This document shows, piece after piece, positions 14,759 to 61,480 of a DNA stretch of 64,000 nt. The notes under the pieces were generated by a model. That model had not been told where the DNA came from and searched no databases. It was given only the letters and a program-made list of their open reading frames with translations. The stretch covers positions 27,218,001-27,282,000 of the forward strand of contig NC_073399.1 of NCBI RefSeq assembly GCF_028641065.1, read 5' to 3'. Source of the stretch: Leucoraja erinacea. Its lineage: Eukaryota. Made by a program: the position numbers and the translations under genes. Numbering within the stretch: the first letter of the stretch is position 1; each line of letters starts with the position of its first letter.

Positions 14759-14873
14759 GTAAAGTACAAATTTCACTTTTACTGGAGCAAAGCACAATGC
14801 GCTGGAGGAACTCAGCGGGTCAGGCAGCATCTGTGGTGGGAAGGGGCAGGTGGTGTTTCGAGTCGCACGTTAA

Positions 14874-15393
14874 TGGGTAGTTTACACGGGGCGACTTGAC
14901 GCAAGATGTAGCCAGAGTGGAGTGGTCGTGGTCTAGCACGATATCACACGATATAACGGGGGGGTAGACCAAGAGTTCCCACGGTACTCGGCAATTCTGT
15001 CATTTTTGCGAGTGACTTGTCCGACTCCCGATCTTTCCCGAATGAACATCGTGGACTGTAGTGTAGTTAATCACGTGGCACAAATGATGTTACTTTGTTG
15101 TCACACACTATATTCGTTTTATTCTCCCGAGCTCTTTAATGAGCTGAAGAATAATCTGTTTTTTTAGACAAATGTTGTTTGGTGTGATGCACCTTCTCTC
15201 ATTATGTGCAAGAAAGAAGTCGTCTTTTTATTTTGTCAAATATGAATAAAGACTGTATCTCACATTGACCGTGATTATTGTGTTTTTTATTCTACTGAGA
15301 GGTGAAACTTTCAGTCTGAAGTTTCAGCCCGAAACGCCACCCGTTCCTGTCGATCCGTCCCTGCTGAGTACAATGTGATCATGGCTGCTCTAC

Positions 15394-15447
<54 letters not shown>

Positions 15448-16578
15448 CTCCCCTCTCTCTCCTCTCTCTCTCTCTCCCGTCCTCCCTCAGTTCCTCTGTC
15501 TCGTCTCTCTCTCTCATCAGTGATCCAGCCTCCACTCTCTCCTCCAGGTGTGAAGTTCTCTCCACCACCCCCCCCCCCCCCCCCCAACTCCCACCCACAC
15601 ACGCGAATGCTGGAGAAACTCAGCGGGTGCAGCGGTGCCGAAACGTTGTCTATTTCCTTCGTTCCATAGATGTTGCCACCAACATTTTAGCCAGCATTTC
15701 TCTCTGTAGATGCTGCCTGGCCCGCGGAGTTCATCCATTCACGCCTGTGTGAGAGGGGGGAGGGAGAGAGAGAGAGAGAGAGAGAGAGACAGTCCTGGTC
15801 AGTCCTTTGAAGATAGACACCAGTTGCTTGGAGCAACTCAGCGGGACAGGCAGCATCGAAGAAGGAACGGGTGCGTTTCGGGTCGAGAGAGCTTTCATCT
15901 ATTCTCTACACAGGCATTTGGAGGAACTCCGCGGGCCAGGCAGCATTTACGTTCCTTCACTCCAGAGATTACGGCCCGTGAGTTGCTCCAAGCAACTGGT
16001 GTCTATCTTCAAAGGACTGACCAGGACTGCCTCGCTCTCTCTCTCTCTCTCGTCTGTCCATTTCTCTCTGTGTAGATGCTGCCTGGCCCGCGGAGTTCAT
16101 CCATTCACGCCTCTGTGAGAGGGACTGAGAAGAGAGAGAGACGCAGGTGGATCCAAATCTTACCTGCCTGTTTCAGGACAGACACCCACCGCCAGTGAAG
16201 TCTTTCAGACCACACACATTAATGAAATGCTTAGCTAGTTTTATTAGATTTGTATGTAAATAGCAAACTGGCTGGATTCACTCTATCCAACTTCTGGGTT
16301 CACCGTTGGCAGGAGTTCCCACGGTGACCGCAAGAGTTACTACGGATATCGCACGGGACACTTCGTTCATAAAATGTTGCAATGCTCAACCACAAGTGCA
16401 CAAGACACTCTTGGACAAATTCAAACATGTTTGAATTTTCTCCCGAGTACCCAAGGTACACGATTAACTGCCGTTAGCGCCACGGTGGTCCACGAATGCC
16501 GTATTGTTACCGCACGAGGTTCCCACGATGTCAAACTCTGGTTACCTCTTGCGTCAAGTCGCACCGTGAAAAGGGGGT
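14874..16578. mobile_element. Non-autonomous DNA transposon (probably Harbinger-like) with nested repeats and (CT)/(GA) microsatellites
   Basis: Subterminal inverted repeat tttacacggggcgacttgacgcaagatgtagccagagt vs actctggttacctcttgcgtcaagtcgcaccgtgaaa. Exact ends are degenerate. Confidence 0.7.
15393..15516. repeat. Interrupted (CT)n microsatellite; (GA)n at ~15764-15789
   Basis: Directly visible dinucleotide runs. Confidence 0.9.
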
Positions 16579-18029
16579 TTTACTTTCTTGCTACAGTCCT
16601 TGCATGACTTCAGAGGCAGAGACGATGAAAAAGGGAAGATTAATAATTTCATGGAACAGTGTTTCGTTTGTGACCATTCACACCCGTATGGCACCTGCAT
16701 AATATTTAAAAAGTCGATTTTCTTGATGTTTAATGATTCAATAGTACTTTATTGTCACAATACCCAAGTAAAGTGAAATTCATTTAGTGTTACAGAATAC
16801 AGTTTGTGACAATCCAACTATACACGGCACATTCACACTAACCTACAAGTGTAAGATAGTAGACCACACTATAGTCAACTTTTTAGTTTAAAATATAGAT
16901 GTTCTACTTTTTCATTATTAGTTTATTGAATTAGAAGTTGATTGGTCACAAAAAAAGGGCGGCATAGGGATGCAGCATTAGGGCTGCAGCCTCACCACGC
17001 CAGAGACCCAGGTTTGATCTCAACCTCAGGTACTGATTGTGCGGAGTTTGTACGTTCTCCCTGCGATCTTGTGGGTTTTCTTTGGGTGCTCCGGTTTCCT
17101 CCCACGCTCCAAAGACGTACAGGTTTGTAGGTTAATTGCCTTCGGTAACAGCAATTGTAAATTGTCCCAATTGTGTAGGGATAGATCTAGTGTATGGGGT
17201 GCTCGCTGGTTGGCATGGACTTGGTGGGCTGAAGGGCCTGTTTCTGTGCTGTACTTCTAAAGTCTAAAATCAAAATAGTATGGAGCTATCTTGTGTGGGA
17301 AAGAACTGCAGATGCTGGTTTAAGTCGAAGATAGACACAAAATGCTGGAGTAACTCAGACAGCATCTCTGGAGAGAAGGAATGAGTGACGTTTCGGGATG
17401 AGACCCTTCTTCAGACGAAGTTTACGGGCAGCATTTTGTCTACAAAAAAGCCCTGACATTGAGGATCGGGCTGAATTGAGTAACTGAGAGAGAAGTTTCT
17501 TTGTTGGAGGGACAGAGAAACTCAACGAATGGCGCAGTCCTTATATGGGACAGGGTGGGTTGGAGAGGAGTCAGTGGCTGTGGGAGCAAGAGATTTGGAA
17601 TGGATGCTGGTAGCTCACCCCGCACATCTTTCCTGTGGTTTATCTGTAAATATTATCCACCCCACTTGGCTGCCTTGTGTCTACCATCAAAGGCAAATCA
17701 TTAATTGGTAAGAGCGCACTAAAACAGCAATAATTGTCATTCAAAACCAATTCAGATTAGATTACCACAAGGTCTGCAGATGAATCAATGGACAATCAAT
17801 GAAGGGTCACGCTCTCCTGTCATTTTACTGCTTTCCTGAGTAAATACTCTGTTTAATTGTCAATGTATTATTTTTTGGAAACATCGCTGCTTACTTGCTA
17901 TGAAAACCATTCTACCTAATGAGATGGTGCATCAATATTGATCACGGTGATCGATGCTGCAGGAAATGCATTCTAGGTTGGAGTTAAAGCTTGTGTGCTC
18001 TGAGGTTTGGTGCCTGTTTTGGTTGTGCG

Positions 18030-18565
18030 ATCTAGAACAACGAACACAGAACTGTGCATCACAGGGACAGGCCCTTCAGCCAACAATGTCTGTGTCGAAC
18101 ATGATGCCAGGTTCACTCCACTACTAGCACATTGATCCATATCCATCCATCCATTCCCTGCATCTCCATGTGCCTATTTAAAAGCTTAAACGACATTATC
18201 ATATTCTCATCCATCATCTTACAGTGCGTTCCAGGCTCCCACCACTCTCTGTGTAAAACAAAAACTTTTCCCGCACATCTCCTTTAAACTCTTCCCCCTT
18301 CACCTTAAAGCTATGCCCTCTAACGTTTGACATTTTCACCAATGGAAAAAGATTCTGACTGTCTATCCTTTCTGTGCCTCTCGTAATTGAATATACTTCT
18401 ATCTGGCCTTCCCTCAGCCTCCGACACTCCAGAGAAAACAATGCAAATTTGTCCAACCTCTCCCTGATACTAACACTCCTTAATCCAGGCAGCAGCCTAA
18501 ACCACTTCTGCACCCTCTCCAGAGCCTGCACATGCTTCATATAATAGGGTGACCAGAACTGCACA
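18030..18565 (-). mobile_element. CR1 LINE 3' fragment
   Basis: QFWSPYYMKHVQALERVQK...FSLECRRLR on the minus strand, plus a 3' end shared with the SINE tail (gaagggcctgtccctgtg). Confidence 0.8.
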
Positions 18566-19871
18566 CGTCATCTAGCAAGATGGTACATGCTTGAGACCCA
18601 TGGCCTTGATTGCCAGTGAGCGACTCCCCTTCATCTACTTCCCCTTGCAGGGTGCATGGGAAATAATCTGGTCATTCTGGGACAGGGGTCGCACAGGGTG
18701 TGGTTGAGGGAGTGGGAGACCTGCTGGTGGAGGTTGGGACACAGATCTGATCCTCGTCAGAAGTCAGGGTGCGAGTGCAGCCAGAGTTTCAGAGGCTCAG
18801 GAGTCAGGGCTGGAGTTTAGTTGGGGATTACCGGCCAGATTACAGAGGGTGTCCCTGGTGTTGGGAGGTGCCTGGAGAGGGAGCGAGTCAGGAAGGCGAG
18901 GGGTGGGGTGGGAACCGATGCTGTGGAGCTCCCAGTCATGGTCTGAGTTGCTCCACTAGGCCAGGGCCGTTCCATCAGATTTCCTCGGCATGTATTCGAC
19001 ACATTTCACGTGTCTTTACGTCATTTCATGCACACGCACAGCAGTGTCATACGTGACTGGAAATGCCCGGTGCAATATCCAACGTGATGTGGTTCAGCCC
19101 AGAGGTTGTCCAATTACTCTACCGCAGAACTAACTGATGTTGCAACACGCATTGCTGAAATTAACACAACAAAGCACGCCCACCCGGGTATCTGACTGTT
19201 TCATCATCATAGAAACAGGGAACTGCAGACACTAGAATATGGAGTAAAAAACAAAGTACTGGAGGAACTCAGCAGGTCAGGCAGCATCTGTGGAGGGAAT
19301 GGACAGAACATGTTTTGTGTCAGGACCCTTCCTCAGAGTTTGAAGATGGGTCCAACTCGAAACATCACCTATCCATTCCCTCCACAGATGCTGCCTGACC
19401 CTCTGAGTTACTCCAGTACTTTGTGTTTCACTCTATTTCAAGATCATATTCCATTAATTAGATTAATCTAGCAGCTTTGGACAGTTTTACATCCTCCTTG
19501 CCTGCAACATGCCGACTATTTTATTTGAATAAATCACCAACTCACCTTTAAATATATATTAAATTAAATAACAAATAATTGTTTCCTCCCTCGGTGTGTT
19601 GAGGAGGGAATAGTCAGAGATAATGCTTCCTTTCCCAGCAGACTTATCAAAATCACTTCAGTTAGATCACCACTTCCACGTAAGCACCTGTTGTCATGCA
19701 GACACTTGTAATGATAGTGCTTTACTGCAAAAACAAGTGCTTGCCATCATGTTGTTCATTGAAGCTGTTGAAAGGAATGATACAGTAGGAACTAAGAGGG
19801 AATTAGATAAGGCTCTTGATAGCACTCATTCATGGAACTTAGCAAACGCCTTGTTTAGAATGAGTTTGATG

Positions 19872-22149
19872 CCTCAATATAATTATGGAGAGGGTCAGAA
19901 CTGGACCTAGGGTTGAGATTTTTGATTGGAGAAAGGCTAACTTTGAGGAGATGCGAAAGGATTTAAAAGGAGTAAATTGGGACAGTTTGTTTTATGGGAA
20001 AGATGTGGAAGAGAAATGGAGGACATTTATAACCATATAACCATATAACAATTACAGCACGGAAACAGGCCATCTCGGCCCCACAAGTCCACGCCGAACA
20101 ACTTTTTTCCCTTAGTCCCATCTGCCTGCACTCATACCATCTATCTATATCTATCTATCTATCTATAAAACTCTGGGGCCATCCGACCGACTGCTGACCG
20201 GCGCCCTTCCTGCCTTTCGATTCGTGCCCGATACTCGCAGATGTCCAATCGGAATGGCCGATGCTCACAGATGACCAATCGGAATGGATTCATTTGCATG
20301 TACGGCTGCCGGCTGCATTTCTTCCTTTGATTCATTGCCACGCCCAATCCAGACGCTCAATCTCCGAGATATTTTCCATTTCGGTAGAGATTTCGCTTTT
20401 CTTTCTAAGTATCCACTCCTCATTTCATTTTGTCGTGTTGAAGTACACGTTTTAAAACAAATCCTTCTCCCCGCCCCCCACCCGCCCACAAGAATTTCAA
20501 AAATAAACAGGCTTCTCCATTTACATGTCAGCTTCCAACACACTTCGAAACAAAGTTGCAAGACAGGAACACTGAACTTTTCACTGCTGCAGCAGGCAGG
20601 GGAGGTGCCATTGGATTTTTTTTTAAAGAGGCAGGGCAGTGCTGGAATCTTACTTTTGAGAACGGCTTCAGTTCCATTGGAGGAGACGGGTGCATGGTGG
20701 AATATTGGTTTGGGGTATTACACCATTAGGTGAGCAGACCCGACAGGTCTGCGCTTGGGATAGTCTATCTATCTATATATATATAAAACTCAAATCAGTC
20801 CGCCTGCCGTCCGGCTGCCGCCCGGCTGCATTTCTTCCTTTGATTAATTGCCACGCCCAATCCAGACGCTCAATCTCCGAGATATTTTCCATTTCGGTAG
20901 AGATTTCGCTTTTCTTTCTAAGTATCCGCTCCTCATTTCATTTCGTCGTGTTGAAGTACATGTTTTTAATCAAATCCTTCTCCCCCCCCCCCCCCACCCC
21001 CAAGTATTTCAAAAATAAACAGGCTTCTCCATTTACATGTCAACTTCCAACACACTCCGAAACAAAGTTGCAAGAAAGGAACACTGAACTTTTCACTGCT
21101 GCAGCAGGCAGGGGAGGGCTGCAATCTTACATTTGGGAACGGGCTCAGTTCCAATGGAGGAGACGGGTGCATGGTGGAATATTGGGCTGGGGGATCACAC
21201 CATTGGGGGAGCAGACCCAACGGGTCTGCACTTGGTCTAGTATATCTATAAAACTCTGGGGCCATCCGACCGACTGCCGACCGGCACCCTTCCTGCCTTT
21301 CAATTCGTGCCTGATACTCGCAGATGTCCAATCGGAATGGCCGATGCTCGCAGATGTCCAATCGGAATGGATCCATTTGCATGTACGGCTGCCGGCTGCA
21401 TTTCTTCCTTTGATTCATTGCCACGCCCAATCCAGATGCTCAATCTCCGAGATCTTTTCCATTTCGGTAGAGATTTCGCTTTTCTTTCTAAGTATCTGTT
21501 CCTCATTACATTTCGTCGTTGTGAAGTACACCTTTTTAATCAAATCCTTCTCCCCCCCCACACCCAAGTATTTCAAAAATAAACAGGCTTCTCCATTTAC
21601 ATGTCAGCTTCCAACACACTTCGAAACAAAGTTGCAAGACAGGAACATTCTGAACTTTTCACTGCTGCAGCAGGCAGGGAAGGTGCCATTGGATTTTTTT
21701 TTAAATCCACTGCTGAGGGAGGCAGGGCAATGCTGGAATCTTACTTTTGGGAATGGCTTCAGTTCCATTGGAGGAGACGGGTGCATGGTGGAATATTGGG
21801 TTGGGGGATCACACCATTGGGGGAGCAGACCCAACGGGTCTGCACTTGGTCTAGTATATCTATAAAACTCTGGGGCCATCCGACCGACTGCCGACCGGCG
21901 CCCTTCCTGCCTTTCGATTCGTGCCCGATACTCGCAGATGTCCAATCGGAATGGCCCATGCTCGCAGATGTCCAATCGGAATGGATTCATTTGCATGTAC
22001 GGCTGCCGGCTGCATTTCTTCCTTTGATTCATTGCCACGCCCAATCCAGACGCGAGCATTCCATTTGCATGTACGGCTGCCGGCTGCATTTCTTCCTTTG
22101 ATTCATTGCCACGCCCAATCTCGTACACGTTTTTAATCAAATCCTTCTC

Positions 22150-22181
<32 letters not shown>

Positions 22182-22835
22182 CCCCCAAGTATTTCAAAAT
22201 ATTTTAATCCACTGCTGAGGGAGGCAGGGCAGTGCTGGAATCTTACTTTTGGGAACGGCTTCAGTTCCATTGGAGGAGACGGGTGCATGGTGGAACATTG
22301 GTTTGGGGGATCACACCATTGGGGGAGCAGACCCAACGGGTCTGCACTTGGTCTAGTAACATTTAAAGGTGAAATTTTAAGAGTACAGAATCTTTATGTC
22401 CCTGTTCGGTTGAAAGGAAATAGTAAAAATTGGAAAGAGCCATGGTTTTCAAGGGAAATTGGACACTTGGTTCGGAAAAAGAGAGAGATCTACAATAATT
22501 ATAGGCAGCATGGAGTAAATGAGGTGCTTGAGGAGTATAAAGAATGTAAAAAGAATCTCAAGAAAGAAATTAGAAAAGCTAAAAGAAGATATGAGGTTGC
22601 TTTGGCAAGTAAGGTGAAAGTAAATCCAAAGGGTTTCTACAGCTATATTAATAGCAAAAGGATAACGAGGGATAAAGTTGGTCCATTAGAGAGTCAGAGT
22701 GGACAGCTATTTGCAGAGCCAAAAGAGATGGGGGAGATATTGAATTATGTGAGGTAAGGGAAACAAGTATAGCTATGGAAACTATGAGGATCAAAGAAGA
22801 GGAAGTACTGACACTTTTGAGAAATATAAAAGTGT
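19872..22835 (+). mobile_element. CR1 ORF2 fragment (19872-20028 + 22361-22835) interrupted by an inverted CR1 3' end and the Helitron array
   Basis: ...EEKWRTF|KGEILRVQNLYVP...NPKGFYSYINSKR reads through when the insertions are removed. Nearly the same sequence as 46100-46625 on the minus strand. Confidence 0.88.
20140..22356 (+). mobile_element. Tandem array of four non-autonomous Helitron copies (~480-620 bp each)
   Basis: Begins A|TCTATCTATATC...TATAAAA. Units end GCAGACCC-AAC-GGGTCTGC hairpin + ACTTGGT + CTAG at 21240, 21854 and 22356, with a degenerate end at 20763. Right flank is T, no target-site duplication. Confidence 0.85.
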
Positions 22836-24519
22836 CATGAAACAGTCATATAAATATGTAAAAGGAAGCTCAATATTTTTTTTTTAAAAACAACATGGTG
22901 CAAAAAGCAAAGCCTAAAGTTTTTCGTGCATCCCAGGCAGCTTGTAGTTCGGAGATTAGTTGATGTTTGTAGTATTCAAGAGACTGATGGGTGTTGGAAA
23001 GAAGCTTTTCCTCACCCTGAGCATTTTGGTTTTGAGGCTCCTGTACCTTTTTTCCCGATGGCAGGAGTGAAGTGAAAGCGTGGCCAGGGTAGTGTGGGTC
23101 CTTGATGATGCTGGCTGCCTTTTTGAGGCAGCACCTCCAGTAGATCCCTTCGATGGTGGGGAAGTCAATACCTGTGATGCACTGGGCAGTGCTCAGCAGA
23201 TCCAAGGTCAACATTGAGCTTGGGCCACTGGAGCTGTGGGGAGCAATGTAAACTGCAGCCTCATCTCATGGCCCCACCTGTAACTAGTTACATTACACTG
23301 TGAATGCTAAAAATCCAAAACAGAGACAGAAGTTGACATATGTACTCAGCAGCTCAGATCCTGGATGTGGAGAAAAACACAATTAATGGACGAGATTCTG
23401 ACCAAAAGGACACAAAGTACTGGAGTAACTAAGTGGGTCAGGCAGCATCTTTGGAGAACATGGGTAGATGAGATTTTGGGTTGGGACCCTTCTTCAGACT
23501 AAACATGCAGTAGGTCCTTCTGAATTGATAATGGAAGATAAGAATGACAGATGAATTCAACCAGCATTTTGCATCACTTTCCCTGTGGAATATAGGTGTC
23601 ATTGCTCAGAATTACAATAACTGGGGCATTAGCACATGACGCATTGCTGGAGCAGCAACCAACCCATCCTCATCAAGTTCATCCTAGGGTTTTAAAAGTT
23701 GCTACAGTAATAGTCGAAGATACATTGCCTCCACAAATGCTGACTGACCCGTTGAGTTCCTCCAGCACATTAAATCTTGTTCAAGATTTCAGCATCTGCA
23801 CTTCCTTACACCTCCATGATAATTGATGCATGGATTCAGTTTTCTAAAAAGCCCTCAAAGTGGACAGGTTCCACTAGATCAGTAAATGGCAAATGTAACT
23901 CCTTTCTCCAAAATGTAGGGAGGTAGAAATGACAGGCCGTTGGCTGAACAGAGGGAAGATGCTTTAATCTCATAGTAGAAGGTGATTCAAAATAACAGGC
24001 AAAGTCAATGTGGTTTTGTGAAATGTATTGGAGTTCTTTGAAGGTAAGATGTGTCATGGATTATGTAAGGAAGGTTCGCTGGTCGGCAGGTCCTCCTCCA
24101 AAGGCACATCAATTGACGGGATCGGGAACCTGCCCGAAGGCTGGTCAGACGGTGTAACCGGGAGGGAGTTGGAGGCATCGGACGTGAAGAGCAAGGGCCG
24201 GCAGGAGGCGTCCCTGGGATACAAAGATGACCAGGCAAGGAGAGGAGAGGGACATTGGTTCTTGTGGGAACTGCTCCAGTATATCCTGGGCCGACTGGAA
24301 TATGGACTTTGAATAATGGCGCCAAAAATGGTGGCGCCATCATGTGTAATATTTGCAAAAAGAAGTTCACTCTGCAGGTGTATAGGTGACTAACAAAAGC
24401 TCCATTGAAGTCTAATTAAGGAGAAGTTGCTCTGCTCAGATGGTGTGGTTAATTTGTAGAATTCACATCCACGAGAGTGAATTAATACATAATCCATATC
24501 CTGCCGTTCTCTCTGGCAG

Positions 24520-44789: not shown

Positions 44790-46626
44790 CATATAACCAT
44801 ATAACCATATAACAATTACAGCACGGAAACAGGCCATCTCGACCCTTCTAGTCCATGCCGAACACATAATCTCCCCTAGTCCCATATACCTGCGCTCAGA
44901 CCATAAATAACCCTCCATTCCCTTCCCATCCATATAACTATCCAATTTATTTTTAAACGATAAAAACGAACCTGCCTCCACCACCTTCACTGGAAGCTCA
45001 TTCCACACAGCTACCACTCCCTGAGTAAAGAAGTTCCCCCTCATGTTACCCCTAAACTTCAGTCCCTTAATTCTCAAGTCATGTCCCCTTGTTTGAATCT
45101 TCCCTACTCTCAGTGGGAAAATGCACACTGAATGGACACTGGTTGAGCAACGTTTTTTGTTTCCTCTGGGTATGTGAATACTCAGGAAATGACAATAAAG
45201 ATATACAATACAATACAATACAATAAAAGCTTTTCCACGTCAACTCCCCCCTTAACCTTCTGCGCTCCAAAGAATAAAGCCCTAACTTGTTCAACCTTTC
45301 TCTGTAACTTAGTTGCTGAAACCCAGGCAACATTCTAGTAAATCTCCTCTGTACTCTCTCTATTTTGTTGACATCCTTCCTACAATTAGGGGACCAAAAT
45401 TGTACACCATACTCCAGAATTGGCCTCACCAATGCCTTGTACATCTGCATACTTACTAATCCAATTTACCACACCATCATCCAGATCATTGATGTACATG
45501 ACAAACAACAGTGGACCCAACACAGATCCCTGTGGCACCCCACTCGTCACTGGCCTCCAACCTGACAAACAACCATCCACCATTACTCTCTGGCATCTCC
45601 CATTCAGCCACTGTTGAATCCATCTTGCTACTCCACCATTAATACCCAACCATTGAACCTTCTTACCCAACCTTCCATGAGGAACCTTGTCAAAGGCCTT
45701 ACTGAAGTCCATATACACAACATCCACTGCTTTACCCTCATCAATTTCCCGAGTAACATCTTCAAAAAATTCAAGAAGATTAGTTAAACATGACCTTCCA
45801 GGCACAAATCCATGTTGACTGTTCCGAATCAGACCCTGTTTATCCAGATGCTTATATATATTATCTCTAAGTATTCTTTCCATTAATTTGCCCACAACTG
45901 ACGTCAAACTAACAGGTCTATAATTGCTAGGTTTACTCTTAGACCCCTTTTTAAACAATGGAACAACATGCGCAGTACGCCAATCCTCCGGCACTATTCC
46001 CGTTTCTAATGACATTTGAAATATTTCTGCCACAGCCCCTGCTATTTCTACACTAACTTCCCTCAATGTCCTAGGGAATATCCTGTCCGGACCTGGAGAC
46101 TTATCCACTTTTATATTTCTCAAAAGTATCAGTACTTCCTCTTCTTTGATCCTCATAGTTTCCATAGCTACTCTACTTGTTTCCCTTACCTCACATAATT
46201 CAATATCCTTCTCCTTGGTGAATACCGAAGAAAAGAAACTGTTCAATATCTCCCCCATCTCTTTTGGCTCTGCAGATAGTTGTCCACTCTGACTCTCTAA
46301 TGGACCAAATTTATCCCTCGTTATCCTTTTGCTATTAATATAGCGGTAGAAACCCTTCGGATTTACTTTTACCTTACTTGCCAAAGCAACCTCATATCTT
46401 CTTTTAGTTTTTCTAATTTCTTTCTTAAGATTCTTTTTACATTCTTTATACTCCTCAAGCACCTCATTTACTCCATGCTGCCTATAATTATTGTAGATCT
46501 CCCTCTTTTTTCCGAACCAAGTGTCCAATTTCCCTTGAAAACCATGGCTCTTTACAATTTTTACGATTTCCTTTCAACCGAACAGGGACATAAAGATTCT
46601 GTACTCTTAAAATTTCACCTTTAAAT
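44790..46626 (-). mobile_element. CR1-type LINE, truncated ORF2 (RT) with internal deletion and 3' tail
   Basis: ORF 45386-46528 has [30 protein letters not shown] and [13 protein letters not shown] motifs. The frame breaks after YAD by deletion. (ATATGGTT)n tail at ~44790-44812. Confidence 0.93.
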
Positions 46627-47454
46627 GTAGTGCTCCACTCAAAGAACAAAGAGAAAAGTTAGTGTAGTTATACATTTTCTTATCAATAAAACACACCTTC
46701 TAAATCTGAGTGAAAGATCCGTAGCCAAAGGGAAACAAGGGAGGCTGGACCCATATATTTGCAATGTCAGCCTTATTCTCAAATCTTGGCACAGCTTCAG
46801 TAGGGCTGCCCATTCCGGATCGACAACGAATGCCATTTTGTTTTCAAATGACTTCCATCTTGTTTCTCGAATGAGCATCCGCCACTACTGCCTTGTCTTT
46901 AGCTAGAACAGGCAGTTCAGATATTATATCAAATATGGTGCTATGTGCAGACAATACATCTCTATGTTAATACATTGTTTCAATGATTAGTATAAACCAA
47001 GCTTTTAAGGTTTTCCCAGACTTATTCTGCTGGGAAAATTCTTTTTTAAACTTGTCTGCTTTCAGTTGTTCAGCAAACTCCATTTATAATTTACAAACAA
47101 AACTTGAGCAAATTAAACTCTTTCAATATGATCATGGATTGTGTGGTAAATTGGAAAAATCTTGCAGAAATTACTTTTCAAAGCCAGCACCAAGGATTCT
47201 GAGCACAAAAGGACACTGAGCTGTCATGTCTGCATCAGTGCACACCAACTTCAGTACTTGTAAGTGTTAGAAATGTAGATCTTACATAAATCACCACTTT
47301 ACAAATGTCTCTACATGGAGTTTATTTCAACAATCTTCATGAAGAAAGCTGCTTGGAGCTAGGGGTTTTTTTTCCGGTATAATCCTGAGCTGTAAATATA
47401 TTTTCTCCTTTTGGTTTCTCATCAACCAGGACCTTGGTTTGAAAATTATACTAA

Positions 47455-58060: not shown

Positions 58061-59410
58061 TTAAGGATTTATCAAGTGAATAGAGAATTATATTAAACTG
58101 TATGGTTCATAAAGAGCAAACCATCACCCAAATGGATTAATATTCATTTCACTCCTGTAGCATTTATTAAATATCATGGTGGTATTAGGTCAAATTGAGT
58201 TGATTGCCATATGCACAAGTACAGAAACAATGAGAATCAGCCTGACAGACACAACTCAGACAACATGCAGAACATAACAATTCATACAGTGAAAAGGAAA
58301 AGACTGTGCAAAAGGCACAACATTAGTGCAAAATCATAAAGGAAACAATTCTGTGGTAGTGCAAGGGGTGGTCTGTAGTGATCCATTGCCAAGGTAGGAT
58401 TAGGGTTTTGGAGGTTGTAGGAAAGTAGCTATTCCTGAACTGGCTGGTGTGTGACTTGAGGCTTCTGAACCTCCTGCCCGACGGTAGCAGTGAGAAGAGG
58501 GCACGGCCGGGACGGTGGTGATCCTTGATTGTAGATGGCGCCACCTTAAGGCAGCTCCTCGTGTAGATGATTTTGAAGGTGGCGTGGGCTGTGCCCAAAG
58601 AACTCTGTATATTTGGCTGTGCTTGTGATGGACTGGGCTGAATCCACCATTCTCTGCAACCTCTTGTGTTTCTGTGGTTTGGAATTGCCATACCGGGCCG
58701 CGATGCAACCAAACAGGATACTTTCTGAAGAAATTTGTTAGATTATTTGGATTCTCCCTAAACTTCTAAAAAAGTTGAGTTGCAGCTTTAGACAGTGTTC
58801 ACAGGATCATCAGAAGCTGAGAGTTAAATAATTACTGAGAAAACTGTAAGAGGTTCTTTTCAATCCAATACCACTATATCGTATCTACCTCCACCACCAC
58901 CCCTGATAGTGCATTCTAGAAACTCGTCACCCTCTATGTACAAAACAAAATTGCCGCGCACATCTCCTTTAAACTTTGTGCCTTTCACCTTAAAGCCATG
59001 CCCTCTGGTTTTTCATATTTCCATCCTGGGAAACAGGTTCTGAATGTTTACCTTATCAATACCTCTTATCTATATTACTAAAAGTCTGTTCTTGACCGGT
59101 TTTGGCCATCTGTGCTGCGATTTCCAAGAGAACACCGCCACCTACGGCCGTCATTTTTGGCCACCTTGCTCAGAGCCCCCCTCCGCCACATGTGTGCTGA
59201 GGATTTTTCCCGTCGATTAAAAATGACAGAGATATTAATGTTTTTACAAAATTCCCCATTTTCTCTGCTGCCCCCGCTGGCGGCAGGGGGAGGGACTATA
59301 AAACCAGGAAGTGCCACACAGTCTCTTCAATATGGAGGAAGGCAGAGGGTCACGTTTCTCTGAACTGTGAATAACACTGAACACTTGTCTACTCAAATGT
59401 AAGTGCCCTT

Positions 59411-59745
59411 AGTGGTTCTAAAGCTTGCAAAAAAATGGCTATTGGTTCTAAAGCTTGCAAAAAATGGCTATTGGTTCTAAAGCTTGCAAAAAAAGTGTCT
59501 ATTGATTCTAAAGCTTGCAAAAAATGTCTATTGGTTCTAAAGCTTGCAAAAAATGGCTATTGGTTCTAAAGCTTGCAAAAAATTCTATTGGTTCTAAAGC
59601 TTGCAAAAAGTGTCTATTGGTTCTAAAGCTTGCAAAAAATGTCTATTGGTTCTAAAGCTTGCAAAAAAAGTGTCTATTGGTTCTAAAGCTTGCAAAAAAG
59701 TGTCTATTGGTTCTAAAGCTTGCAAAAATGTCTATTGGTTCTAAA
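59411..59745. repeat. Minisatellite, ~29-31 bp unit TTGGTTCTAAAGCTTGCAAAAAA(A)TG(G/T)CTA, about 11 copies
   Basis: Direct tandem repeats differing mainly in A-run length, inside the Helitron. Confidence 0.95.
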
Positions 59746-59772
59746 ATGGTTCATACTAGCGCTCCCGAAAGC

Positions 59773-60645
59773 TGAAGTTGAAAGACACCACTTAATGCAA
59801 ATGGTGGCATGGTTGAAAGGCACTGCTTACTGCAAATGGTGGATTGGTTGCTTTGGCTTGAAGTTGAAAGGCACTACTTACTGCAAATTGTGGCTTGATG
59901 TTGAAAGGCACTACTTACTGCAAATGGTGGCATGAAGTTGAAAGGCACTACTTACTGCAAATTGTGGCTTGATGTTGAAAGGCACTACTTACTGCAAATG
60001 GTGGCATGAAGTTGAAAGGCACTACTTACTGCAAATGGTGGCTTGGGTGCTTTGGCTTGAAGTTGAAAGGCAGTACTTACTGCAAATGGTGGCTTGGGTG
60101 CAATGGCTTGAAGTTGAAAGGCATTACTTACTGCAAATGGTGGCATGAAGTTGAAAGGCACTACTTACTGCAAATGGTGGCTTGGGTGCTTTGGCGAAGT
60201 TGAAAGCACTACTTACTGCAAATGGTGGCTTGGGAGCTTTGGTTTGAAGTTGAAAGGCACTATTACTGCAAATGGTGGCTTGGTTGCTTTGGCTTGAAGT
60301 TGAAAGGCACTACTTACTGCAAATGGCTTGGGAGCTTTGAAGTTGAAAGGCACTACTTCCTGCAAATGATGGCTTGGGTGTGGCTTGAAGTTGAAAGACA
60401 CCACTTACTGCAAATGGTGGCATGAAGTTGAAAGGCACTGCAAATGGTGGCTTGGGAGCTTTGACTTGAAGTTAAAAGGCATTACTGACAGCAAATGGTG
60501 GCTTGGGTGCTTTGGCTTGAAGTTGAAAGGCACTACTTACTGCAAATGGTGGCTTGGGTGCTTTGCTCGAAGTTGAAAGGCATTACTGACAGCAAATGGT
60601 GGCTTGGGTGCTTTGGCTTGAAGTTAAAAGGCACTACTGTAAATG
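59773..60645. repeat. Minisatellite with core GAAGTTGAAAGGCACTACTTACTGCAAATGGTGGC, in short (~37 bp) and long (~51 bp) variants
   Basis: Tandem core followed by either AT or TTGGGTGCTTTGGCTT, inside the Helitron. Confidence 0.95.
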
Positions 60646-61480
60646 CACTTCCTGTTTGCACTGTATATTGATTTTAGATAAAACGCTACCAGTTATGGTT
60701 GTGATTTTTGGCCATCTTACTCAGTCCCCCTCCACTGAGCAGGTGCAGAGAATTCTTCTCATCAATGAAAAATAAAAGTGTTATTAGTTTTAAAATAAAT
60801 GTTGAGAATCTCTCTCCTGTCAATCACTCCATGAAAGCCACACCTTTTCTGGTGTGGGGGGAGGGGTTATAAAACCCGGAAATGTGGGTGTGGCTCAGTC
60901 TCTGCAAGATGGAGGAGGGAGAGGTCACGACTCGCTGTCTTTAGTGGCTTTGCACCCTACTTCAAATGGTATGAAACTGCACTTGAATTTGGTGGCCTTA
61001 TACCCTGCTTGAAATAGAATTTCAAGGATTAGCCGTGAGTCAACTACCAGCCCACCAGCCGTGAGTGAGTGAGTTGCCAGCACAACAGGCTTGATTGACT
61101 GAGACGCCTGCCCAAGAATCCATTTGGCGCACAATTTGCATACTAGCCCTCTGGAAACCAGTCCCTTCAGCCCACAACACCCATACTAGCGCTCCAGAAA
61201 GCCCTCCCCCCCCCCCCCCCCCCCAAACTGGCCCCCCAATATTAGAATTGGTGGAGAGGTGGAATATTGCGTTGGATGACCAGCTCTCCTGTGTGATGCT
61301 GGGACCCAACGGGTCCCACTTAGTCTAGTAACTTTATATACTTCTATCAAGTCTCCCCTCAATCCCTCCGGCATTCCAGGGAAACAATCTGATTCTATCC
61401 AACCTCTCTGTAATGCTAATACCCCTTAATCCAGGGATCATTCTAGGAAACTATCTCTGCCTCCACATCCTTCCTGTAAT

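Follow-up and report, generated by a model that had tools for sequence, protein, structure and literature searches.

Four non-autonomous Helitrons stand head to tail in an intron of the KIF19 gene of Leucoraja erinacea, and this array was very probably built by separate insertions that piled up one upon another, new copies entering at an A|T dinucleotide four bases inside the head of an earlier copy. An earlier note on this DNA had proposed repeated insertion into the heads of earlier copies as one of two possible routes, and it is this route that is supported by the clipped register of the joints, by leftover TCTA pieces in the front heads, by a target motif found both at host sites and in the heads, and by the independence of the units. 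All of this evidence comes from one assembly (GCF_028641065.1).

The array and its host site

The window, i.e. the whole stretch of 64,000 nucleotides that was analysed (contig NC_073399.1, positions 27,218,001 to 27,282,000), contains four related units whose boundaries, first proposed in the earlier note, were confirmed in its sequence. The units and the features that surround them are as follows.

14759-24519, plus strand: KIF19 intron holding the array (phase 0, GT..AG, next-exon match)
19900-20029 (start approximate), plus strand: left part of an interrupted LINE fragment, whose frame ...EEKWRTF resumes as FKGEILRVQ... after the array
20023-20029, plus strand: left copy of the target-site duplication (TSD) ACATTTA, of a retroposon tail and not of the Helitrons (paralogue comparison)
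20030-20139, with its last two bases at 22357-22358, minus strand: 5'-truncated LINE 3' tail inserted into the first LINE and split at A|T by the Helitrons
20140-20763, plus strand: unit 1, a non-autonomous Helitron of the same type as unit 3; 18 nt of TCTA/TA pieces precede its 8-nt core, and its 3' end is degenerate
20734-20752, plus strand: degenerate subterminal hairpin of unit 1, 7 bp (sequence and fold)
20764-21240, plus strand: unit 2, of a different subfamily, with a head closest to that of the autonomous element
20764-20775, plus strand: (TCTA)3, probably unit 2's own TCTA and two from units 3 and 4
21211-21229, plus strand: subterminal hairpin of unit 2, 8 bp (sequence and fold)
21241-21854, plus strand: unit 3, a full-length copy with its head clipped by TCTA
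21825-21843, plus strand: subterminal hairpin of unit 3 (sequence and fold)
21855-22356, plus strand: unit 4, with its head clipped by TCTA, an internal duplication and deletions
22060-22120, plus strand: 61-bp internal duplication in unit 4 (unit comparison)
22327-22345, plus strand: subterminal hairpin of unit 4 (sequence and fold)
22357-22367, plus strand: part of the original target downstream of the insertion point, TAACATT-TAAA (TAAA at +8)
22359-22834, plus strand: right TSD copy (22359-22365) and right part of the interrupted LINE, which matches 46628-46106 at 88.7%

Units 1 to 4 measure 624, 477, 614 and 502 bp, respectively. As had been claimed, units 2-4 end in a hairpin, GCAGACCC-AAC-GGGTCTGC, followed by 7 nt and CTAG, and the end of unit 1 is degenerate. 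The 8-bp hairpin of units 2-4 has a folding energy of -8.9 kcal/mol (DNA parameters), and unit 1 carries a 7-bp version of it, with ATAG in place of CTAG. Comparison of the units also bore out that junctions 2/3 and 3/4 are identical, that the 5' segment of unit 2 differs from those of the other units, and that unit 4 combines an internal duplication with deletions. Of the TCTAT/TATA-rich heads described for all units, those of units 1 and 2 start with TC; those of units 3 and 4 do not and instead begin TATATCTATAAAA, that is, the intact family head TCTATATATCTATAAAA minus its first four bases. Units 1, 3 and 4 share a 30-bp tandem duplication close to their 5' ends (20228-20287, 21313-21370 and 21923-21984), which unit 2 lacks. 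Open reading frames of 100-401 codons that run across the array were taken as chance frames in a repeat.

The array had been placed in a KIF19 intron, and this location was upheld by the splice sites and by the exon that follows, the best match of which is KIF19 (PDB 5gsz, E 6.8e-32, versus 5e-17 for KIF18A). The nearest KIF19 exon lies 2.2 kb from the array. Intronic and nested in old LINE debris, the locus looks neutral, and no function for the host gene is indicated.

Insertion between A20139 and T22357 without a TSD was likewise verified, since paralogues of the host repeat read ACCA|TAACC uninterrupted; the paralogue search gave 24 matches, of which 14, including this locus, are shown, and ACCA|TAA is present in 12 of the 13 others. 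In uninterrupted paralogues of the first LINE, position 20029 runs straight into the sequence at 22366. The inserted LINE tail (about 110 bp) matches 44792-44904, the tail end of a minus-strand reverse transcriptase (RT) element (RVT_1), at 87%. The site is nested: a plus-strand LINE fragment received a minus-strand LINE tail with a 7-bp TSD, and this tail in turn received the Helitrons at ACCA|TAAC. The ACATTTA duplication (20023-20029 and 22359-22365) was rejected as a Helitron TSD, as it pertains to the retroposon tail now split by the array. We take both interrupted LINEs to be members of the CR1 clade. Another intron of the gene contains a longer member of this LINE family (45386-46628, minus strand, and 44790-44904), which has an RVT_1 RT frame and a (CCATATAA)n tail.

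Helitron identity and the autonomous partner

The identification of the units as Helitrons, made in the earlier note from their ends, was substantiated by A|T insertion without TSD at empty sites, by hairpin-CTAG ends that are followed by T, and by an element that encodes a Rep-helicase between matching ends. A search with the 18 nt at the 3' end of the units and one loosely specified base downstream gave 6,150 matches in the 2.19-Gb assembly, and the T expected after CTAG is the next base in 100 of 100 3' ends among the matches listed. Empty sites were sought with 88 flank queries, of which 81 were uninformative and 7 led to a clean paralogue; none of these 7 has a duplication, and in 6 of the 7 the paralogue reads A|T.

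A Rep-Helicase open reading frame between the same termini, the search for which had been suggested, is present in an 11.8-kb element on contig C38 that has an open frame of 1,739 aa. A profile search of the genome with the Pfam Helitron Rep domain (PF14214) gave 78 matches. The frame of the C38 element contains PF14214 and PIF1 domains together with HFH and YxxKY motifs, and its best structure match is Helraiser (7lcc, E 3e-201, full-length over the 1,173 aa searched). Its last 38 terminal nt are 95% identical to those of unit 2, and about 250 nt of its head are 84% identical. This autonomous copy itself lies inside a stack. We infer that the units were likely moved by this Rep-helicase element of the genome's own. 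The C38 element corresponds to L056/L057 (G000:C38:11394001-11414000, minus strand), and the N-terminal part of its frame contains 23-aa repeats. Near-identical copies of it (95-99%) occur on several contigs, and the family has therefore been recently active.

By the definition set out in the passages of PMC11417382 cited here, the array units classify as canonical HLE1 Helitrons. A 5' TC terminus is found in free copies and in empty-site comparisons, which start A|TC, and in units 1 and 2; units 3 and 4 would lack it because they were clipped by later insertion. The subterminal hairpin and CTRR end are present in units 2-4, with a degenerate form (ATAG) in unit 1, and A|T insertion without TSD is seen at the listed ends, at the empty sites and at the window's own site. 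The autonomous partner with an HUH Rep, a Pif1 helicase and shared termini is the C38 element. The same 5' TC, subterminal hairpin, 3' CTAG and A|T insertion without TSD are described for Helibat and Helraiser (PMC4778049, PMC11417382; 7lcc), as are a Rep and Pif1 transposase and non-autonomous copies that share the ends of the autonomous element (PMC4778049, PMC11417382). Assignment to HLE2, Helentron or DINE-1 was rejected, for no inverted repeat joins the unit ends, insertion is at A|T and not T|T, and the partner frame has no endonuclease domain.

Joints, target motif and growth of the array

Free copies of the unit-3 type start A|TCTATATATCTATAAAACTC, following the pattern TCTA, 8 nt and TAAAA, and units 3 and 4, which start TATATCTATAAAACTC, are four bases short of them. 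In genome searches the clipped junction of the unit-3 type was found 112 times and the exact full-head junction 0 times. When all subfamilies with this 3' end are considered, joints in the clipped register, a few of which will be chance matches in host DNA, number 1,981 versus 11 joints with a full TCTA head. Inspection by eye of 100 listed unit-3-type heads, of a total of 124, placed 53 directly after a 3' end in the clipped register.

These joints bear directly on the other route that the earlier note had put forward, the insertion of a single rolling-circle concatemer in one event. This is how tandem arrays are read in the literature (PMC5876387; PMC11934779; bioRxiv 10.1101/2021.06.02.446622), and Helraiser circles join CTAG to TC precisely (PMC4778049), so that a concatemer should keep the whole head at each joint. 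At joints 2/3 and 3/4 the TCTA expected of a circle joint is missing, and the absence of exact full-head joints in the unit-3 type stands against 112 clipped ones. In addition, the units come from different subfamilies and are less like one another than like dispersed copies. Perfect CTAG|TC joints between near-identical units were not found in the array; the TC head at joint 1/2 links unlike subfamilies. Elsewhere in the genome, four near-identical full-head pairs do speak for concatemers. For this array the concatemer reading was not supported, and we regard it as extremely improbable.

The four pairs in question are the 4 of the 11 full-head joints that link same-type units 96-98% alike, the other 7 linking unlike or only partly alike units. 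They are L225, L226, L227 and L228, the best candidates for true rolling-circle dimers in the genome, and such dimers may exist at a low rate. Junction 1/2 of the array, a full triple-TCTA head after a degenerate end, does not fit a simple clipping rule. At L009 and G000:C14:1898588 the 3' end reads CTAA (not CTAG) and a full head follows; at these sites a G-to-A change in an existing joint may have created a new A|T target.

The sequence downstream of the 3' ends was characterized in the first 100 listed ends on contig C1, where 80 of 87 merged regions yielded 94 termini. As judged by eye, the sequence that follows is a Helitron head at 34 of these termini and host DNA at the other 60, and a recognisable further 3' end follows within 2.5 kb in 18 of the 34 head cases versus 2 of the 60 host cases. 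The host flanks begin with T, and in 31 of the 60 a TAAA starts at +7 to +10, including 22 at +8. The background frequency of TAAA at these positions is 4.0% among 19,545 nearby A|T sites, the AT-matched expectation is 7.2 of 60, and 5,000 shuffles gave a mean of 8.2 and a maximum of 20 against the 31 observed. Among the 34 Helitron heads that follow a terminus on C1, TAAA starts at +9 in 28. The array's own target, TAACATT-TAAA, has its TAAA at the commonest host-target position. Behind its TCTA, the head closely reproduces the preferred host target, T-N6/7-TAAA. These flanks point to a transposase that prefers A|T-N6/7-TAAA, a preference that would make the head, TCTA|T-N7-TAAAA, a ready target.

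Two families, A and B, which have the 17 nt TATATTACTAAAACTCT in common, provide a built-in control for head targeting. Intact heads of family B (606 matches) mostly carry TCTA before the motif, giving A|T, and 36 of the 100 family B heads listed were found by eye directly after an exact CTAG, or 48 of 100 when degenerate ends are included. In family A (875 matches) a C precedes the motif in 71 of 100 listed cases, and heads directly after CTAG were seen by eye in 3 of 100. The difference between 36/100 and 3/100, both being by-eye tallies, is associated with a Fisher p of 1e-9, and a difference in age between the families could contribute to it. The window itself contains, at 59069-61328 on the plus strand, an unclipped family A head (TC, 8 nt and TAAAA) and a hairpin-CTAG|T end of a different terminus type. 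They likely delimit one solo element of 2.26 kb, which encloses tandem repeats of 29, 37 and 48-51 bp (59413-60640).

Leftover pieces of clipped heads were counted in arrays and in solo elements. At least two TC pieces are present in the front head of 20 of 20 arrays versus 8 of 29 solos (p 1e-7), the automatic count overcalling a few solos, and the contrast is 18 of 18 versus 5 of 10 when family A is left out (p 0.003). The head of unit 2 contains exactly three TCTA, matching units 2, 3 and 4; in general the leftover count is inexact, as TC pieces often outnumber units and many tracts are much longer. L018, a single unit, has three extra pieces that are absent from its empty paralogue. Insertion into pre-existing (TCTA)n microsatellites was considered as a source of the long heads and is disfavoured by 3' flanks in which the repeat does not continue and by the lack of the pieces in the L018 paralogue.

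The units of the array resemble dispersed copies more than they resemble each other. Identity to dispersed copies amounts to 96.4% for unit 1, 97.9% for unit 2 (477 nt) and 96.9% for unit 3, and identity within the array to 91% between units 1 and 3, 83% between units 2 and 3, and 83-86% between unit 2 and its neighbours. These pairwise nearest-neighbour comparisons point towards array units that do not group together. They also help to weigh the multiplication in place, by unequal crossing-over or slippage, of one or two original insertions, a process that would agree with the identity of joints 2/3 and 3/4 and with the 97% likeness of units 3 and 4 over their first 199 and last 155 nt, and for which L028 offers what looks like a local duplication. 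However, over its first 199 nt unit 4 shows 99.5% identity to dispersed copies versus 97% to unit 3; 40 differences in 591 sites separate units 1 and 3, with dispersed copies only 16-22 changes away; and duplication leaves the third TCTA before unit 2 unexplained. We consider multiplication in place very unlikely for this array. L028 (G000:C20:32570293-32573903) is a five-unit array with alternating A-B-A-B units; between its two B units there are 2 differences in 592 sites, compared with 7 to the nearest copy outside the array, a pattern suggestive of local duplication in addition to stacking. Since clipped joints survive such duplication, not every one of them represents a separate insertion.

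Units 1 and 4 have peculiarities of their own. The last 69 nt of unit 1 (20695-20763) carry 10 substitutions, versus 0-2 in 46 other copies, and this odd end may be a local sequence error. No subfamily with the 3' end of unit 1 was found in the assembly, nor one with the rearrangement of unit 4, each sequence (for unit 4, the junction tested) having 1 exact match. These single matches leave no visible donor for a stack that had been built elsewhere by self-insertion and then moved here as one block through read-through of inner 3' ends. Bypass of an end is documented for Helraiser (PMC4778049) and the degenerate end of unit 1 might be skipped, but units 2-4 possess perfect terminators, and we see little likelihood of such a block transfer. 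Still less credible is the expansion of a single unit by the assembly, which the earlier note had asked to be checked with long reads. No contig of four public runs spans joint 1/2 or the left joint, in runs that contain no more than 44% of the sampled words and in which repeats are cut; the Helitron family is at high depth in public contig sets. Against such an expansion, the units are 83-97% alike and of different subfamilies, and the joint rule is repeated at about 2,000 other places.

Growth by separate insertions would proceed as follows. A transposase attracted to A|T-N6/7-TAAA would meet this motif in its own head behind TCTA, and each hit would leave TCTA before the newcomer, clip the head that follows it and place a new target at the front. 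In the present array unit 4 was likely the first to insert, at ACCA|TAACATTTAAA; unit 3 would then have entered the head of unit 4, and unit 2 that of unit 3, which would produce (TCTA)3. Unit 1 may be a late insertion, the last of the four, at the outer A|T. Alternatively, it may have come first, its end being older or chimeric, and unit 4 would then have reused the same target motif at the G|T behind it. If front copies jumped again, the extra TCTA pieces would travel along and would grow by slippage into (TCTA)n tracts.

Comparison with other Helitrons and significance

Several features of these stacks have counterparts in the passages of earlier studies cited here. Helraiser is reported to prefer AT-rich DNA, most strongly 3' of the insertion (PMC4778049). 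In the skate genome the preference on the 3' side is for a spaced T-N6/7-TAAA that recurs in the element's own head, although Helraiser may show the same motif. A further difference is that about one-third of the sampled 3' ends (34/94) run into the head of another Helitron. In maize, Du et al. (2008) argued from a single case for consecutive insertion, disputing the concatemers proposed by Pritham and Feschotte (2007) (PMC2267711). As in the present array, that case comprises unlike elements arranged head to tail, with consecutive insertion as the proposed origin. It is, however, one case with a full TC head after CTAG (PMC2267711), whereas here about 2,000 joints fall in a fixed register four bases inside the head, accompanied by leftover TCTA pieces and by a host target motif that matches.

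Self-insertion near 5' ends has also been described in Fusarium and Metarhizium (PMC5148889). The FoHeli elements of Fusarium insert into other copies, at the 5' end or close to it, and their multiple 5' ends are attributed to self-insertion followed by transposition from the outermost end, much like the stacks described here (PMC5148889). In contrast to these stacks, FoHeli are non-canonical Helitrons, the cases are few and the duplicated ends reach up to 200 bp; the cited parts of PMC5148889 give no target motif for them. Arrays of plants, bats and Drosophila share the head-to-tail, same-strand arrangement (PMC5876387, PMC11934779, bioRxiv 10.1101/2021.06.02.446622). As presented in the cited passages, those rolling-circle arrays are defined by perfect CTAG|TC joints, in contrast to the 11 versus 1,981 joints counted here. 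The parts of PMC4224331 consulted contain nothing on tandem arrays. Our literature search returned no report of a fixed-register self-target, of a T-N6/7-TAAA motif or of TCTA leftovers, although figures or supplements may describe the motif. Nor did it return a report of Helitrons of this kind in cartilaginous fish.

Helitrons are an ordinary class of transposons, and the value of these arrays resides in the mechanism that they record, namely, growth in which most new copies were targeted to the heads of earlier ones. Helitrons in tandem are widely taken as traces left by rolling-circle replication, an interpretation disputed in the maize study from its single case (PMC2267711). Whether the head at a joint is clipped or full constitutes a simple test, and in this genome the answer is lopsided, 1,981 to 11. 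With considerable reservation, we suggest that canonical Helitron transposases might target their own elements through a downstream motif mimicked by the left end; that most head-to-tail arrays of animals might be stacks; that (TCTA)n/(GATA)n tracts might be scars of stacking; and that one base of the head (TCTA versus TC) might determine which families become landing pads. The target motif is directly testable with a Helitron transposase and bears on the use of Helitrons as gene-delivery tools, and stacking points to a route by which GATA-type microsatellites may be born.
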